Positions 22,893 through 54,284 of a stretch of 64,000 nt of DNA are shown here, piece after piece. The stretch's first letter is position 1. Each line of letters starts with the position of its first letter. The position numbers were made by a program, and so were the translations under genes. Source of the stretch: Escherichia coli. Lineage in GTDB: Bacteria; Pseudomonadota; Gammaproteobacteria; Enterobacterales; Enterobacteriaceae. Under the pieces are notes generated by a model that ran no database searches, was not told the DNA's origin, and saw only the letters and a program-made list of their open reading frames with translations. Where the stretch lies: the NCBI RefSeq assembly GCF_003018115.1, contig NZ_CP027457.1; one strand, written 5' to 3'.

Positions 22893-22980
22893 GGTGAGGT
22901 GTCCGAGTGGCTGAAGGAGCACGCCTGGAAAGTGTGTATACGGCAACGTATCGGGGGTTCGAATCCCCCCCTCACCGCCA
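22893..22980 (+). tRNA. serX: tRNA-Ser (anticodon GGA)
   Basis: 88-nt sequence with 7-bp acceptor stem ggtgagg / cctcacc, long variable arm, anticodon loop ctGGAaa, TPsiC ggttcgaatcc and 3' CCA. Confidence 0.93.
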
Positions 22981-45456: not shown

Positions 45457-46103
45457 ATGACTACAGCGCCAGCCTCAATCCGCAAAAAGCCCTGATCTGG
45501 CGTATCGTCCATCGGGACAATATCCCGTGGATTCTGGACAATGGTCTGCACTGCGGCAACAGCCCGGTGCAGGCTGCTAACTGGATCAATATCGGCAACC
45601 CGGAGCTTATCGGCAAGCACGCCGGACATCCGGTACCTGTCGGGACGGGCGGGACACTGCGTGACTATGTGCCATTTTATTTTACCCCCTTCTCGCCAAT
45701 GCTGATGAACATCCACAGCGGACGTGGCGGCATTAAGCAACGCCCCAATGAAGAGATCGTTATTCTGGTCAGCAGCCTGCGGCACGTGGCAGCACACGAC
45801 GTGCCCTTCGTGTTTACCGACAGCCATGCTTACTATAACTGGACCAACTACTACACCAGTCTGGATAGTCTGGACCAGATCGACTGGCCCATTTTGCAGG
45901 CACGGGACTTTCGCCGCGATCCAGACGATCCGGCTAAATTTGAACGCTATCAGGCAGAGGCGCTAATCTGGCAACACTGCCCGATCTCGCTGCTGGATGG
46001 GATAATTTGTTACAGCGAAGAGGTCAGGTTACAATTAGAACAATGGTTGTTTCAGCGTAATCTAACAATGTCCGTTCACACACGGGCTGGATTGGTACTT
46101 CTC
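45457..46103 (+). pseudogene. darT: DarT-like (DUF4433) ssDNA ADP-ribosyltransferase, N-terminus disrupted by frameshift
   Basis: ATG 45457 with AAGGG RBS reads [12 protein letters not shown] then stop; one extra A in the A5 run 45484-45488 would give [34 protein letters not shown]... continuous with track ORF 45567; candidate catalytic Glu in [10 protein letters not shown]. Confidence 0.6.
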
Positions 46104-47171
46104 ATGATCACATATACACAAGGCAATTTACTGGACGCACCGGTGGAAGCTCTGGTGAATACGGTTAATACCGTCGGTGTCATGGGGAAAGGCATCGCGT
46201 TGATGTTTAAAGAGCGCTTCCACGAAAATATGAAAGCCTATGCCCTCGCCTGCAAACAAAAGCAGGTGATCACCGGCAAAATGTTCATTACCGAAACCGG
46301 GGAACTGATGGGACCGCGCTGGATTGTTAATTTTCCGACCAAACAGCACTGGCGCGCTGACTCCCGCATGGGGTGGATTGAAGATGGCTTACAAGACTTA
46401 CGTCGATTTTTGATTGAAGAGAACGTGCAATCCATCGCCATTCCACCGCTGGGCGCAGGCAACGGTGACTTGAACTGGCCGGACGTTCGGGCGCAGATTG
46501 AATCTGCCCTTGGCGACCTTCAGGACGTTGATATCCTGATTTACCAACCAACTGAAAAATACCAGAACGTTGCCAAAAGCACTGGCGTAAAAAAGCTCAC
46601 TCCCGCCAGAGCCGCCATCGCTGAACTGGTGCGTCGCTACTGGGTATTGGGGATGGAGTGCAGCCTACTGGAAATCCAGAAACTGGCCTGGCTGTTACAA
46701 CGCGCCCTTAAGCAGCATCAACAGGACGATATCCTCAAACTGCGGTTTGAAGCTCACTATTATGGCCCCTATGCGCCCAATCTGAACCATCTGCTTAATG
46801 CGCTGGACGGCACCTATCTTAAAGCCGAGAAACGCATCCCGGACAGCCAACCGCTGGATGTGATCTGGTTTAACGATCAGAAAAAAGAACACGTTAATGC
46901 GTATCTGAACAGCGAAGCCAGAGAGTGGCTACCGGCGCTGGAGCAGGTCAGCCAGTTAATTGACGGCTTTGAATCGCCGTTTGGTCTGGAGCTGCTGGCA
47001 ACCGTAGACTGGTTGCTGAGCCGTGGCGAATGTCAACCAACACTGGATTCCGTTAAGGAAGGGCTGCACCAGTGGCCTGCGGGCGAACACTGGGCCAGCC
47101 GTAAGTTGAGGCTGTTTGATAATAATAATCTGCAATTTGCCATTAACCGCGTAATGGAGTTCCATTGCTGA
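46104..47171 (+). CDS. darG: DarG-like macrodomain antitoxin
   Basis: Starts [39 protein letters not shown] with [10 protein letters not shown] macrodomain motifs plus a C-terminal domain; in this sequence in frame with the DarT-like region, no intervening stop. Confidence 0.7.
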
Positions 47172-50285: not shown

Positions 50286-51001
50286 TGCCAATCATGCAAA
50301 TAGGCTCGTTACACTTGCTGGTCAACCGTAAGGCGATTAAGAATCTGCATATCAGCGTGCTGCCGCCTGATGGCAAAGTCCGCGTTTCAGCGCCGGAACA
50401 TATGACGGAGACGGCGATTCGTATGGCGGTTGCTTCACGCTTTCGCTGGATCAGAAAACAGCAGCAGGATTTCGCCAGACAGCCTCGTCAATCAGAGAGG
50501 GAAATGGTCAGCGGAGAGTGCCACTATCTTTGGGGCCGAAGATATCGCCTACTTGTGATTGAGCGTCACGGGCGTCACGAAGTAAAAGTTGCGGGAAATA
50601 ATAAGCTCCAGCTTTATGTTCAACCGGGAACCCGTGATGAAAATAAGGCATTGGCGTTAAGTGAATTTTATCGACATGAACTAAAACAGCAGGTGGCTAA
50701 GCTTCTACCTGAATGGCAGGACCGAATCGGTGTTCCCCTAACATTCTGGGGCATCAAAAAGATGAAAACCTTTTGGGGCACCTGTAACACTACAACAAAA
50801 CGAATCTGGCTCAATCTGGAGCTAATTAAGAAGCCGCCGGAGTGTCTGGAGTATATTCTGGTGCATGAACTGGTTCATCTTCTGGAACGTCACCATAATG
50901 CTCGCTTCCGGTTGCATATGGATCGGTTTATTCCTGACTGGCGTGAGCGTCGGGATTTGTTAAATAATATGCCGTTAGCGTTTGAGGCATGGGAGTATTG
51001 A
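50285..51001 (+). CDS. YgjP-like (DUF45/M48-type) zinc metallopeptidase
   Basis: 238 aa; HExxH in HELVHLLERHH; ATG overlaps hsdR stop (TGATG). Confidence 0.75.
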   Translation: MPIMQIGSLHLLVNRKAIKNLHISVLPPDGKVRVSAPEHMTETAIRMAVASRFRWIRKQQQDFARQPRQSEREMVSGECHYLWGRRYRLLVIERHGRHEVKVAGNNKLQLYVQPGTRDENKALALSEFYRHELKQQVAKLLPEWQDRIGVPLTFWGIKKMKTFWGTCNTTTKRIWLNLELIKKPPECLEYILVHELVHLLERHHNARFRLHMDRFIPDWRERRDLLNNMPLAFEAWEY

Positions 51002-51103
51002 TTGAGCCTGTAACTGTTTTTTGTCCATAAATTAACCTTCATTTGATGCTGGATTGAACATATCAAAATCAGACAATTACACAAATCTATGTACAGGCTC
51101 AAC

Positions 51104-51168
51104 TCCTGCCATGGAACGTAGTACTCACCAATAAGTAAGCATCAATACGGCGCTCCGTTAACGCTTAC
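51104..51168 (+). mobile_element. IS66-family right-end fragment
   Basis: About 65 bp near-identical to the last 65 bp of the complete IS66 copy (53833-53897), including end of tnpC coding sequence and terminal repeat, same orientation. Confidence 0.5.
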
Positions 51169-51452
51169 TAGCATGGTTATCTCCTTAAAAAATTGAGGCG
51201 ACAACTATGCTGACACAGGGGGTTACTCACCGATCTCCTTCACGGTAATACGCAGTTCTTCAGAACCCGCCTCCGATACCAGCCTGGCGGTCGCCCCGGC
51301 GCAACAGAATAAATCAACCATCGTCAGACTGCGATCATTCGTAATGTTCCGGGGACCTCATCTTCAGTAAGCGTAAACTGACCGCCGTATGTAGCCATTA
51401 AGCCAGTATTGGTAACGTAGGTGCCCACCTTTTCAACTAGTGGACACCTGTT

Positions 51453-51878
51453 ATGGAACAGAAAATATTATCCTCAGAACCCCGCAGATCATTTTCAAAT
51501 GAGTTTAAACTTCAAATGGTTAAACTGGCTTCACAACCAGGAGCCTCTGTTGCCCGTATTGCCCGGGAACACGATATCAATGATAACCTCCTGTTCAAAT
51601 GGCTCAGGCTCTGGCAGAACGAAGGGCGTATATCGCGGCGTCTTCCGGTAACAATCTCTTCTGGCGCTGGCGTTGAATTATTACCTGTTGAGATAACGCC
51701 TGATGAGCAGAAAGAGCCTATGGCGGCTCTTACTCCGCTTTTATCCACTCCTTCACAAAGCACAGTCAGTGCCAGTTCCTGTAAAGTTGAGTTCCGCCAC
51801 GGTAACATGACGCTGGAAAATCCTTCACCAGAGCTGCTCACGGTGTTGATCCGTGAACTGACCGGGAGGGGACGATGA
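51453..51878 (+). CDS. IS66 accessory protein TnpA (orf1)
   Basis: 141 aa (MEQKILSSEPRRSFSNEFKLQMVKLA...). Confidence 0.8.
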   Translation: MEQKILSSEPRRSFSNEFKLQMVKLASQPGASVARIAREHDINDNLLFKWLRLWQNEGRISRRLPVTISSGAGVELLPVEITPDEQKEPMAALTPLLSTPSQSTVSASSCKVEFRHGNMTLENPSPELLTVLIRELTGRGR

Positions 51879-52225
51879 TCTCGCTCCCATCAGGTACCCG
51901 TATCTGGCTCGTTGCCGGCGTTACCGATATGCGTAAATCCTTCAACGGACTGGGAGAACAGGTACAACATGTGCTGAATGATAATCCCTTCTCCGGTCAC
52001 CTGTTTATCTTCCGTGGCCGACGGGGTGACACCGTCAAAATTCTTTGGGCTGATGCTGATGGTCTGTGCCTGTTCACCAAACGCCTGGAGGAAGGCCAGT
52101 TTATCTGGCCTGCGGTACGTGACGGCAAGGTATCCATTACCCGCTCGCAACTGGCAATGCTCCTCGATAAGCTGGACTGGCGTCAGCCAAAAACATCCAG
52201 CCGTAACTCACTGACAATGTTGTAA
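51875..52225 (+). CDS. IS66 accessory protein TnpB (orf2)
   Basis: 116 aa, ATGA overlap with tnpA. Confidence 0.85.
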   Translation: MISLPSGTRIWLVAGVTDMRKSFNGLGEQVQHVLNDNPFSGHLFIFRGRRGDTVKILWADADGLCLFTKRLEEGQFIWPAVRDGKVSITRSQLAMLLDKLDWRQPKTSSRNSLTML

Positions 52226-52255
52226 AAAACTCCTGACCGCATTATAAAAACGGTC

Positions 52256-53869
52256 ATGAGTCAGAAATACCTCATTCGCATCGCAGAGCTGGAAAGATTG
52301 CTCTCTGAGCAGGCTGAAGCCCTCCGTCAGAAAGACCAGCAACTGAGTCTGGTTGAAGAGACGGAAGCCTTCCTGCGCTCTGCACTGACACGTGCCGAAG
52401 AAAAGATCGAAGAAGATGAACGGGAAATAGAACATCTGCGGGCTCAGATAGAAAAACTGCGCCGGATGCTGTTCGGTACCCGTTCTGAAAAACTGCGTCG
52501 TGAAGTTGAACTGGCTGAGGCTCTGCTGAAACAACGTGAACAGGACAGCGATCGTTACAGTGGGCGGGAAGACGATCCTCAGGTTCCCCGCCAGTTGCGA
52601 CAGTCGCGCCATCGTCGTCCGTTACCGGCACACCTTCCCCGTGAAATACACCGCCTGGAGCCAGAAGAAAGCTGTTGCCCGGAGTGTGGCGGTGAACTGG
52701 ATTATCTGGGGGAAGTCAGCGCTGAACAGCTGGAACTGGTGAGCAGTGCCCTGAAAGTGATCCGCACAGAACGGGTAAAAAAAGCCTGTACAAAATGTGA
52801 CTGTATTGTTGAAGCACCGGCGCCGTCCCGCCCGATAGAGCGTGGTATCGCGGGCCCCGGATTACTTGCCCGCGTGTTAACGGGAAAATACTGCGAACAT
52901 CTGCCACTGTATCGTCAGAGTGAAATCTTTGCCCGCCAGGGTGTCGAACTGAGCCGGGCCTTACTCTCCAACTGGGTTGACGCGTGCTGCCAGTTAATGA
53001 CACCGGTGAATGATACCCTGTACCGTTATGTAATGAACACCCGCAAGGTTCACACTGATGACACACCGGTAAAGGTACTGGCACCGGGTCAGAAAAAGGC
53101 GAAAACAGGGCGTATCTGGACGTATGTCCGGGATGATCGCAATGTGGGTTCGTCATCTCCTCCAGCGGTCTGGTTCGCGTACTCGCCGAACCGGCAGGGG
53201 AAACACCCGGAGCAACACCTCCGCCCCTTCCGGGGTATCCTGCAGGCGGATGCGTTCACAGGTTACGACAGGTTGTTCAGTGCAGAACGTGAAGGTGGTG
53301 CACTGACAGAAGTTGCGTGCTGGGCCCATGCCCGGCGAAAAATCCACGATGTATACATCAGCAGCAAAAGTGCGACGGCAGAAGAAGCCCTGAAGCGAAT
53401 CAGTGAACTGTACGCCATCGAGGATGAAATACGGGGATTACCGGAGTCAGAGCGTCTTGCCGTCAGGCAGCAGCGAAGCAAAGTGTTACTGACGTCGCTG
53501 CATGAATGGATGGTGGAGAAGAATGGTACGCTGTCGAAAAAATCCAGACTGGGCGAAGCGTTCAGCTATGTACTGAATCAGTGGGATGCCCTCTGTTATT
53601 ACAGTGATGACGGTCTGGCGGAGGCGGATAATAATGCTGCGGAAAGAGCGCTTCGTGCAGTCTGTCTCGGAAAGAAAAACTTTATGTTCTTTGGCAGCGA
53701 TCACGGCGGCGAGCGTGGAGCACTGTTGTACGGGCTGATCGGCACCTGCCGTCTGAACGGTATCGATCCGGAAGCGTATCTGCGCCATATCCTGAGCGTA
53801 CTGCCGGAATGGCCTTCCAACCGAGTTGATGAACTCCTGCCATGGAACGTAGTACTCACCAATAAATAA
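52256..53869 (+). CDS. IS66-family transposase TnpC
   Basis: 537 aa with N-terminal coiled coil, CxxC zinc motif (CPECGG) and DDE core. Confidence 0.9.
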   Translation: MSQKYLIRIAELERLLSEQAEALRQKDQQLSLVEETEAFLRSALTRAEEKIEEDEREIEHLRAQIEKLRRMLFGTRSEKLRREVELAEALLKQREQDSDRYSGREDDPQVPRQLRQSRHRRPLPAHLPREIHRLEPEESCCPECGGELDYLGEVSAEQLELVSSALKVIRTERVKKACTKCDCIVEAPAPSRPIERGIAGPGLLARVLTGKYCEHLPLYRQSEIFARQGVELSRALLSNWVDACCQLMTPVNDTLYRYVMNTRKVHTDDTPVKVLAPGQKKAKTGRIWTYVRDDRNVGSSSPPAVWFAYSPNRQGKHPEQHLRPFRGILQADAFTGYDRLFSAEREGGALTEVACWAHARRKIHDVYISSKSATAEEALKRISELYAIEDEIRGLPESERLAVRQQRSKVLLTSLHEWMVEKNGTLSKKSRLGEAFSYVLNQWDALCYYSDDGLAEADNNAAERALRAVCLGKKNFMFFGSDHGGERGALLYGLIGTCRLNGIDPEAYLRHILSVLPEWPSNRVDELLPWNVVLTNK

Positions 53870-53909
53870 GCGTCAATACGGTGCTCCGTTGACGCTTACA
53901 GCTTTCCCA

Positions 53910-54284
53910 CTATTTCTTGATTCCTAAACGGAACATATCAGTTGGGAATAAAGGTTGTATTATCACTTCATCATTAAAAATGAATAATTTGGGCGATAAA
54001 GCTGTTACGTCATAGATATTTTCAGCGATTAATCTTAGATTTGACCTAAAAACTGGAATACTTGCATCATCTGCAAAGACAAACATGTCATCGTTTTTTA
54101 CAGAGTTTGCACACAATAGCTCATCAAAACTCTCATAATCAGAATGCCAGATCTCTGACCAAGTAACACTTCCTTTCGCGAGAGGGTACTTATTTAAAAT
54201 GCCCAGAGCCTCCTGCTGAGCCAGCCCCTCTACTATATTAAAATCAGCACTCAGTGCTTCCCGACACTCATCAAATAAAGTCAT
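53910..54284 (-). CDS. putative immunity protein of orphan toxin module
   Basis: 124 aa acidic protein immediately downstream of the orphan CdiA-CT. Confidence 0.5.
   Translation of the reverse strand: MTLFDECREALSADFNIVEGLAQQEALGILNKYPLAKGSVTWSEIWHSDYESFDELLCANSVKNDDMFVFADDASIPVFRSNLRLIAENIYDVTALSPKLFIFNDEVIIQPLFPTDMFRLGIKK

Follow-up and report, generated by a model that had tools for sequence, protein, structure and literature searches.

Locus and features

The window, i.e., the whole 64-kb stretch of Escherichia coli DNA analysed here, contains at positions 51004-51366 a short interval lying between two accessory modules. On the left-hand side are a type I restriction-modification (RM) system, into which a DarT/DarG pair is embedded, and the gene of an M48 metallopeptidase, ending at 51001, and on the right-hand side, beyond a complete element of the IS66 family, are the CDI immunity gene cdiI (53910-54284, minus strand) and VENN pre-toxin fragments. 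The annotation, with a defence cluster (type I RM, DarTG, M48) and a CDI orphan array, thus agrees with a preliminary description of this DNA, which had placed here the junction of a defence cluster and a CDI array. In E. coli 2014C-4135, the M48 gene and cdiI are separated by three IS66-family elements, which serve as references below, namely (i) IS#1, which is IS682-like, (ii) IS#2, of an unnamed 2772-bp type, and (iii) IS#3, a copy of ISEc23; the transposases of IS#1 and IS#3, considered here as the parental ones, bear the PGAP names IS682-family and ISEc23-family, respectively. The interval itself consists of six fragments from four families of insertion sequences (ISs) in 363 bp, which are listed here together with the complete element and the 8-bp sequences flanking it:

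51004..51100, minus strand: left-end fragment of IS1414 (IS256 family), 97 bp, with the outer tip at 51100, the 5' UTR and the first 9 transposase codons; 97.9% identical to L010 2965-3061
51101..51168, plus strand: solitary IS682/ISEc23-like right end of the IS66 family; 68-nt match to 53832-53899
51169..51222, minus strand: left end of an unnamed IS3-family element, with the tip at about 51222, a ribosome-binding site, the orfA ATG at 51174-51172 and one further codon; matched in L011 and cut by the IS66 right tip
51223..51254, plus strand: right inverted repeat of ISEc12 (IS21 family), terminal 32 bp, with the tip ...AATACGCA at 51254; matched in S88
51255..51340, plus strand: internal piece of the right end of an IS#2-type element (unnamed, 2772-bp, IS66-family), 152 to 62 bp from the right tip; matched in L006 and L007
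51341..51366, plus strand: left terminal 26 bp of a second IS#2-type copy, GTAATGTTCCGGGGACCTCATCTTCA, cut by the IS682-like insertion; intact copies match from there
51359..51366, no strand: left 8-bp flank CATCTTCA, the target duplication of the IS682-like parent
51367..53899, plus strand: complete IS66-family element, 2533 bp, with tnpA (51453-51878), tnpB (51875-52225) and tnpC (52256-53869)
53900..53907, no strand: right 8-bp flank AGCTTTCC, the target duplication of the ISEc23 parent, where the cdiI-side DNA begins

The complete IS66-family element

Members of the IS66 family bear imperfect terminal inverted repeats of about 20-30 bp starting with 5'-GTAA. The complete element begins with GTAAGCGT... 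at 51367 and ends with ...ACGCTTAC at 53899, so the start first proposed for it is retained and its end moves from 53897 to 53899. Its left terminal repeat, GTAAGCGTAAACTGACCGCCGTAT, and the right one read in inverted orientation, GTAAGCGTCAACGGAGCACCGTAT, are identical at 20 of their first 25 positions, in keeping with the family, and all three genes of the IS66 family were recognised by NCBIfam, namely TnpA (NF047595, 83 bits for a cut-off of 74), TnpB (NF033819, 120.9 bits for a cut-off of 50) and the IS66 transposase (NF033517, 450 bits for a cut-off of 180), the last corresponding to tnpC, a DDE transposase. In its tnpA-tnpB-tnpC organisation, its length of 2533 bp and its terminal repeats starting with GTAAGCG, the element is like IS682 and ISEc23, but it is a hybrid of both and is devoid of an 8-bp target duplication. 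A search for such a duplication on either side of 51367-53899, as had been proposed as a check, was negative, the flanks reading CATCTTCA on the left and AGCTTTCC on the right. The missing duplication marks a recombination posterior to insertion and not a lack of membership of the IS66 family, because both parental copies in 2014C-4135 have perfect 8-bp duplications.

A solitary IS66-family right end

Upstream of the complete element, a repeat search of the window revealed that 51101-51168 and 53832-53899 form a direct repeat of 68 nt, identical at 64 positions (94%), with a start-to-start distance of 2731. The preliminary description had reported a copy of the IS66 right terminus in the same orientation as the complete element; the alignment it called for bears this out, with a left edge at 51101, i.e., 3 nt beyond the 51104 given at first. 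The exact 32-nt core of the repeat, CTCCTGCCATGGAACGTAGTACTCACCAATAA, occurs exactly twice in the 64-kb window and in none of 100 shuffles, and a chance origin is not expected. As for its contents, the solitary copy comprises the end of tnpC, namely its final 11 codons and the stop (51136-51138), followed by the right inverted repeat; it is collinear with the 3' end of tnpC and the right repeat of the complete element, and the identity stops at the natural right tip, ...ACGCTTAC at 51168 (ending CGCTTAC). It is 97% identical to the right end of IS#1 in 2014C-4135. Neither a matching left end nor a transposase was found upstream of 51101-51168, where the tip of IS1414 and then the M48 gene are encountered.

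Compared with IS682 and ISEc23, the solitary fragment represents the final 68 bp of such an element and, with neither left end nor genes, is immobile. It is also reminiscent of a MITE in being short, non-coding and derived from an IS end. MITEs, on the other hand, possess both terminal repeats, inverted, together with a target duplication, whereas the solitary fragment has a single end only. Its right repeat and the left repeat of the complete element do form an inverted pair of 25 nt, tip to tip across the 198 bp (51169-51366) that separate the two.

An interval composed of IS ends

From comparison with annotated elements, every base of 51004-51366 is assignable to IS ends, with no lost host gene among them. 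The fragments are 98-100% identical to the ends of annotated elements and the matches stop at the tips of these elements. All junctions between the pieces but one put the exact tip of one element against the interior of another, the exception being the inner side of the IS1414 stub, where the element is truncated and adjoins the M48 gene 2 bp past its stop codon.

At the left of the interval, the 97-bp fragment of IS1414 is identical at 97.9% from the terminal repeat through the start of the transposase to a segment of plasmid pE15-3 (L010 2965-3061), which overlaps the start of the annotated IS1414 transposase. In this plasmid, IS1414 occupies L010 1747-3061 and is bounded by terminal inverted repeats GAGCCTGT..., and its protein matches the IS256 transposase family with 430 bits. 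Since the repeats lie at L010 1747 and 3061, position 51100 corresponds to the exact tip of IS1414, and the similarity to both SWHEFF_68 (L009) and pE15-3 (L010) stops precisely at 51100/51101.

Next to the solitary IS66-family end, the IS3-type fragment covers the left end of its element from the tip, the position of which is approximate, to the start of orfA. It shares 98% identity with L011 2201-2252, which immediately precedes an intact IS3-family transposase (CDS 655-2204) with a programmed frameshift, 98-100% with copies elsewhere, and 88.6% with the corresponding region in E57. In L011 and L012, the match to this fragment stops at 51222, with different DNA beyond. The 32 bp that follow are the outermost repeat of ISEc12, ending ...CA: window 51222-51255 is identical at 34 of 34 positions to L005 2501-2534 in S88, just past the istB gene of ISEc12, and the uninterrupted left end of ISEc12 in S88 carries the same repeat in inverted orientation. 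In other genomes, thousands of matches of 33-35 bp at 100% to the ISEc12 tip were retrieved, all of them ending at 51254-51256. It had also been considered that these 32 bp could be the own terminus of the IS3 element, which is ruled out by the uninterrupted left end of ISEc12 in S88 and by the genome 2014-01-7375.

The last two pieces derive from IS#2-type elements. With L006 5822-5915 and L007 5829-5922, both inside intact IS#2-type copies, window 51250-51343 shares 97.9% identity, and O157-type genomes carry a further 61 bp up to the IS#2-type tip ...GGAATATTAC. For intact IS#2-type copies present in unrelated contexts, the match starts at window 51340/51341. The true right end, ...GGAATATTAC, was obtained from the intact copies in L006-L008 and L013; an intact copy has terminal repeats GTAATGTTCC... 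and ...GGAATATTAC and an 8-bp duplication, TCTTCAGG. In Z1323CEC0017, a complete IS#2-type copy adjoins an identical cdiI gene. A junction of an IS circle or of a tandem dimer at 51340/51341 was envisaged and rejected, the right-end piece of the IS#2-type element stopping 61 bp short of the tip.

Past the right tip of the IS#2-type copy in Z1323CEC0017 (L013 6160-6250), a tandem second copy of the 28-bp tip was observed, then GGTCGGTTTACGCTTAC, which looks like another IS66-type right tip and of which O157 (L002 9500-9510) retains only CTTAC. The stack of IS ends thus seems to continue into DNA deleted in the window.

Nested IS insertions and solo IS ends at island borders, also described as IS "graveyards", display the same tip-to-interior junctions, fragments of several families being packed into a few hundred bp where two accessory modules meet. 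Nothing essential sets the present interval apart from them, except that its density is unusual.

Probable recombinant origin of the complete element

In 2014C-4135, IS#1 lies 26 bp inside the IS#2-type element with CATCTTCA on both sides, the rest of the IS#2-type element coming after IS#1 and the duplication CATCTTCA, while IS#3 has AGCTTTCC on both sides. In a three-way alignment, the window agreed with IS#1 at all 163 consecutive informative sites from 51300 to 51883, then with IS#3 at 174 of the 175 informative sites from 51895 on. The parental switch therefore falls within 51884-51894. IS#1 and IS#3 differ in 240 columns within the IS and are about 90% identical, and the window element exhibits zero private differences with respect to the two. 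On this alignment, the complete element is a chimera, IS682-like (IS#1) at 51367-51883 and ISEc23-like (IS#3) at 51895-53899. Such a succession of IS#1-type sites on the left and IS#3-type sites on the right indicates that about 5.3 kb were deleted between two IS copies in direct repeat, which explains the non-matching flanks CATCTTCA and AGCTTTCC. The right end of IS#2 was also sought in 2014C-4135 (L001 14380-14800), as the inverted-repeat partner of the tip at 51341, and none was found there, for a 42-bp deletion would have taken this right tip in that genome.

A similar outcome was reported in Agrobacterium tumefaciens, where pAt15955 delta-270 retains a single IS66 with non-matching 8-bp flanks after recombination between two IS66 copies, the target duplication of IS66 being 8 bp (PMC6778807). 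Likewise, one IS66-family element remains here, bordered by 8-bp sequences that once lay on the outer sides of two copies. The two cases differ in that the parents are here only about 90% identical, and thus the junction could be mapped to an 11-bp interval, and in that 5.3 kb of IS material, not hundreds of kb, would have been deleted.

The switch tract at 51884-51894 amounts to only 11 identical bp, though the parents share some 500 nearly identical bp near their right ends, and one base of the IS682-type (IS#1) recurs at 53015 inside the ISEc23-type part. As a simple RecA crossover is expected in a long identical tract, one has to invoke instead a short-homology event, the repair of a heteroduplex or an error of assembly. 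In the last case, the single chimeric IS would be an artefact, three neighbouring IS66-family copies having been collapsed during assembly, and the true state would be the three-IS arrangement of 2014C-4135. The near identity of the rest of the island with 2014C-4135 speaks for such a collapse, as do the switch in so few identical bases and the stray SNP at 53015, which are unusual for a simple homologous crossover. Against it, the switch is clean, with neither mixed consensus nor private differences over 2.5 kb; 11 identical bases would be too few for a jump between paths of a k-mer graph; the window is contiguous over 64 kb through other repeats; its core genome differs from that of 2014C-4135; and IS66 deletions of this kind are well documented. 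An assembly artefact is accordingly considered unlikely, and a genuine IS#1 x IS#3 recombinant is retained.

Distribution of the scar and of the island

The interval was searched as a scar (query 51040-51260, coverage of at least 80%) against 5426 complete E. coli genomes. The solitary end with identical IS1414/IS66/IS3 junctions, after the same M48 gene, was recovered in 46 of them, 45 having no complete IS adjacent to it, and 33 genomes carry most of the 198 bp. With a 601-bp query across the site, a full-length match was obtained only in E. coli 2014C-4135, the only genome with the complete-IS junction, and many O157:H7 and other genomes are 99.8-100% identical from the M48 gene through 51343 and diverge from there on. 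For instance, O157 644-PT8 exhibits the solitary end and the next 175 bp, then about 120 bp, a single AGCTTTCC and the same cdiI gene, without complete IS; it retains the IS stubs as well as the right tip of IS#2.

Left of tRNA-Ser (22893-22980), the core genome of the window differs by about 1% from that of 2014C-4135. From about 24 kb on, the island has 19 differences from its counterpart at 36-38 kb and one at 55-64 kb, the rest falling within the chimeric IS. Given the divergence of the core beside this near-identical island, the window represents a strain other than 2014C-4135 and not a second assembly of the same isolate. This suggests that the island as a whole recently passed between lineages by transfer or recombination. 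Within the island, darT is apparently frameshifted (45492-47171), a 534-aa open reading frame at 45567-47171 running from inside darT into the frame of darG; PGAP reports darT as frameshifted in the identical island of 2014C-4135 and as intact in O157 644-PT8.

The preliminary description had proposed that a second IS66 copy was deleted or that two elements recombined, the solitary end being what was left. Recombination between IS66-family copies is indeed borne out by the IS682-like/ISEc23-like chimera; the solitary end is not its product. That a second IS66 copy once formed a tandem with the present element, that this strain recently lost it by deletion or recombination and that the solitary end would be its remnant could be entertained on account of the same orientation, the 94% identity, the mere 198 bp between them and the present element having no target duplication. 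The distribution given above tells otherwise, the junctions being identical in 46 complete genomes with a complete IS adjacent in one only. Furthermore, the left cut of the solitary end is the tip of IS1414, with no IS66-related junction, it differs from the present element at 4 of 68 positions, and the IS#1 x IS#3 recombination downstream fully explains the missing duplication. A recent tandem twin is as such very improbable, and the solitary end is best regarded, from these comparisons, as old, as independent of the complete element and not as debris of it.

Host-gene and functional readings of the 198 bp

The 198 bp had further been taken for the 3' end of a lost minus-strand gene. They correspond instead to four IS end fragments, and the sole real minus-strand coding remnant within them, namely the ribosome-binding site, ATG and single codon of the IS3-family orfA, is a 5' end. 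That they would hold the remnant of a minus-strand host (non-mobile) gene or a small functional element (MITE, sRNA, regulatory region) has almost no credence left, for the short minus-strand ORFs (32 and 34 aa), the 41-aa hypothetical protein annotated by PGAP on the equivalent O157 sequence and the 25-nt inverted pair, which could be cited in its favour, are set against four IS end fragments covering all 198 bp at 98-100% identity and against a tip-to-tip configuration of the two repeats that is not transposable and lacks a duplication. As they lie within IS fragments, these small ORFs and the 41-aa protein are regarded as artefacts. Rfam returned no family match within 51169-51356, and promoter- and terminator-like sites were in no excess over shuffles.

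The minus-strand peptide MVDLFCCAGATARL... had been considered as the N-terminus of a methyltransferase and was dropped, the underlying DNA proving to lie inside the right end of the IS#2-type element. Small "hypothetical protein" genes were also called by PGAP at L002 9324-9449, L004 3985-4158 and L006 5626-5769, wholly within the IS#2-type right-end region or its relic, and are probably spurious. On the minus strand at 51357-51445, Rfam further gave a partial, sub-threshold match to the AfaR sRNA (37.8 bits for a gathering score of 100; model positions 26-118 of 234). Because the left end of the IS66-family element is where this match lies, some IS66-derived sequence may be part of the AfaR family model.

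Proposed history of the locus

The interval 51004-51366 is thus very probably a layered scar of successive insertion sequences at the border of two accessory modules, accompanied by an IS#1 x IS#3 recombinant, and would have no function of its own. The junctions are observed as such, and it is from them, i.e., from whose intact tip abuts whose interior, that we infer the order of arrivals and the deletions. The oldest layer would be an IS#2-type IS66-family element beside the cdiI orphan array, into which ISEc12 would have inserted 152 bp from the right tip. An IS3-family element would then have entered ISEc12 within its right repeat, 32 bp from the tip, followed by an IS682/ISEc23-like element in the second codon of the orfA of this IS3 element, and by IS1414 in the IS682/ISEc23-like copy, 68 bp from its right tip. 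Leftward deletions from these insertions would have taken the bodies of the elements, so that only the stubs next to the tips remained where the M48 gene gives way to the CDI array, and this stub state without any complete IS is the one carried by O157:H7 and other genomes.

Later on, in the lineage of the present island, a new IS#2-type copy would have inserted in the old IS#2 stub at 51340/51341, then an IS682-like copy 26 bp inside this new IS#2-type copy (duplication CATCTTCA), with an ISEc23 copy about 5 kb downstream (duplication AGCTTTCC); this three-IS state persists in 2014C-4135. For the new IS#2 copy to have entered the old stub, an extra deletion between GAAAAACGTGT repeats would be required, as we infer, to account for the right end in 2014C-4135. 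As a final step, recombination of the directly repeated and about 90%-identical IS682-like and ISEc23 copies would have led to the loss of 5.3 kb and to the single chimera at 51367-53899. In the genome 2014-01-7375, the IS3/ISEc12 junction is a different one, located 113 bp from the ISEc12 tip, so at least one junction has been remodelled and the insertions may not have followed this order strictly.

In three cases that diverge in sequence, the IS3-type element lies 32-33 bp inside a terminal repeat belonging to an IS21-family element, namely (i) in the right repeat of ISEc12 at window 51222/51223, (ii) in the left repeat of an ISEc12-like element in E57 (L003 2552-2585), with a TTAT duplication, and (iii) in another IS21-like end of plasmid pE600003_68 (L011 2252-2285). 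Because the relative position is equal in all three, the IS3-type element may home to IS21-type ends. It is tentatively proposed that the stubs could be short partly from targeted rather than random insertion, and that resident IS ends could be a preferred landing pad.

Significance

Densely stacked IS remnants and, next to them, a recombinant element of the IS66 family make up the locus. For all its density the stack is ordinary, and it belongs to known biology and common genome wear. From a practical point of view, the interval between the M48 gene and the complete IS should be annotated as IS remnants and not as hypothetical genes. The stubs would provide a relative chronology of six IS arrivals at the junction of the defence island and the CDI array, and the scar would serve as a lineage marker, 46 genomes sharing it, one having the three-IS state and the window the deleted state. 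The chimeric IS, for its part, would document a 5.3-kb IS-by-IS deletion between copies only about 90% identical. Beyond annotation, the locus is of little significance.
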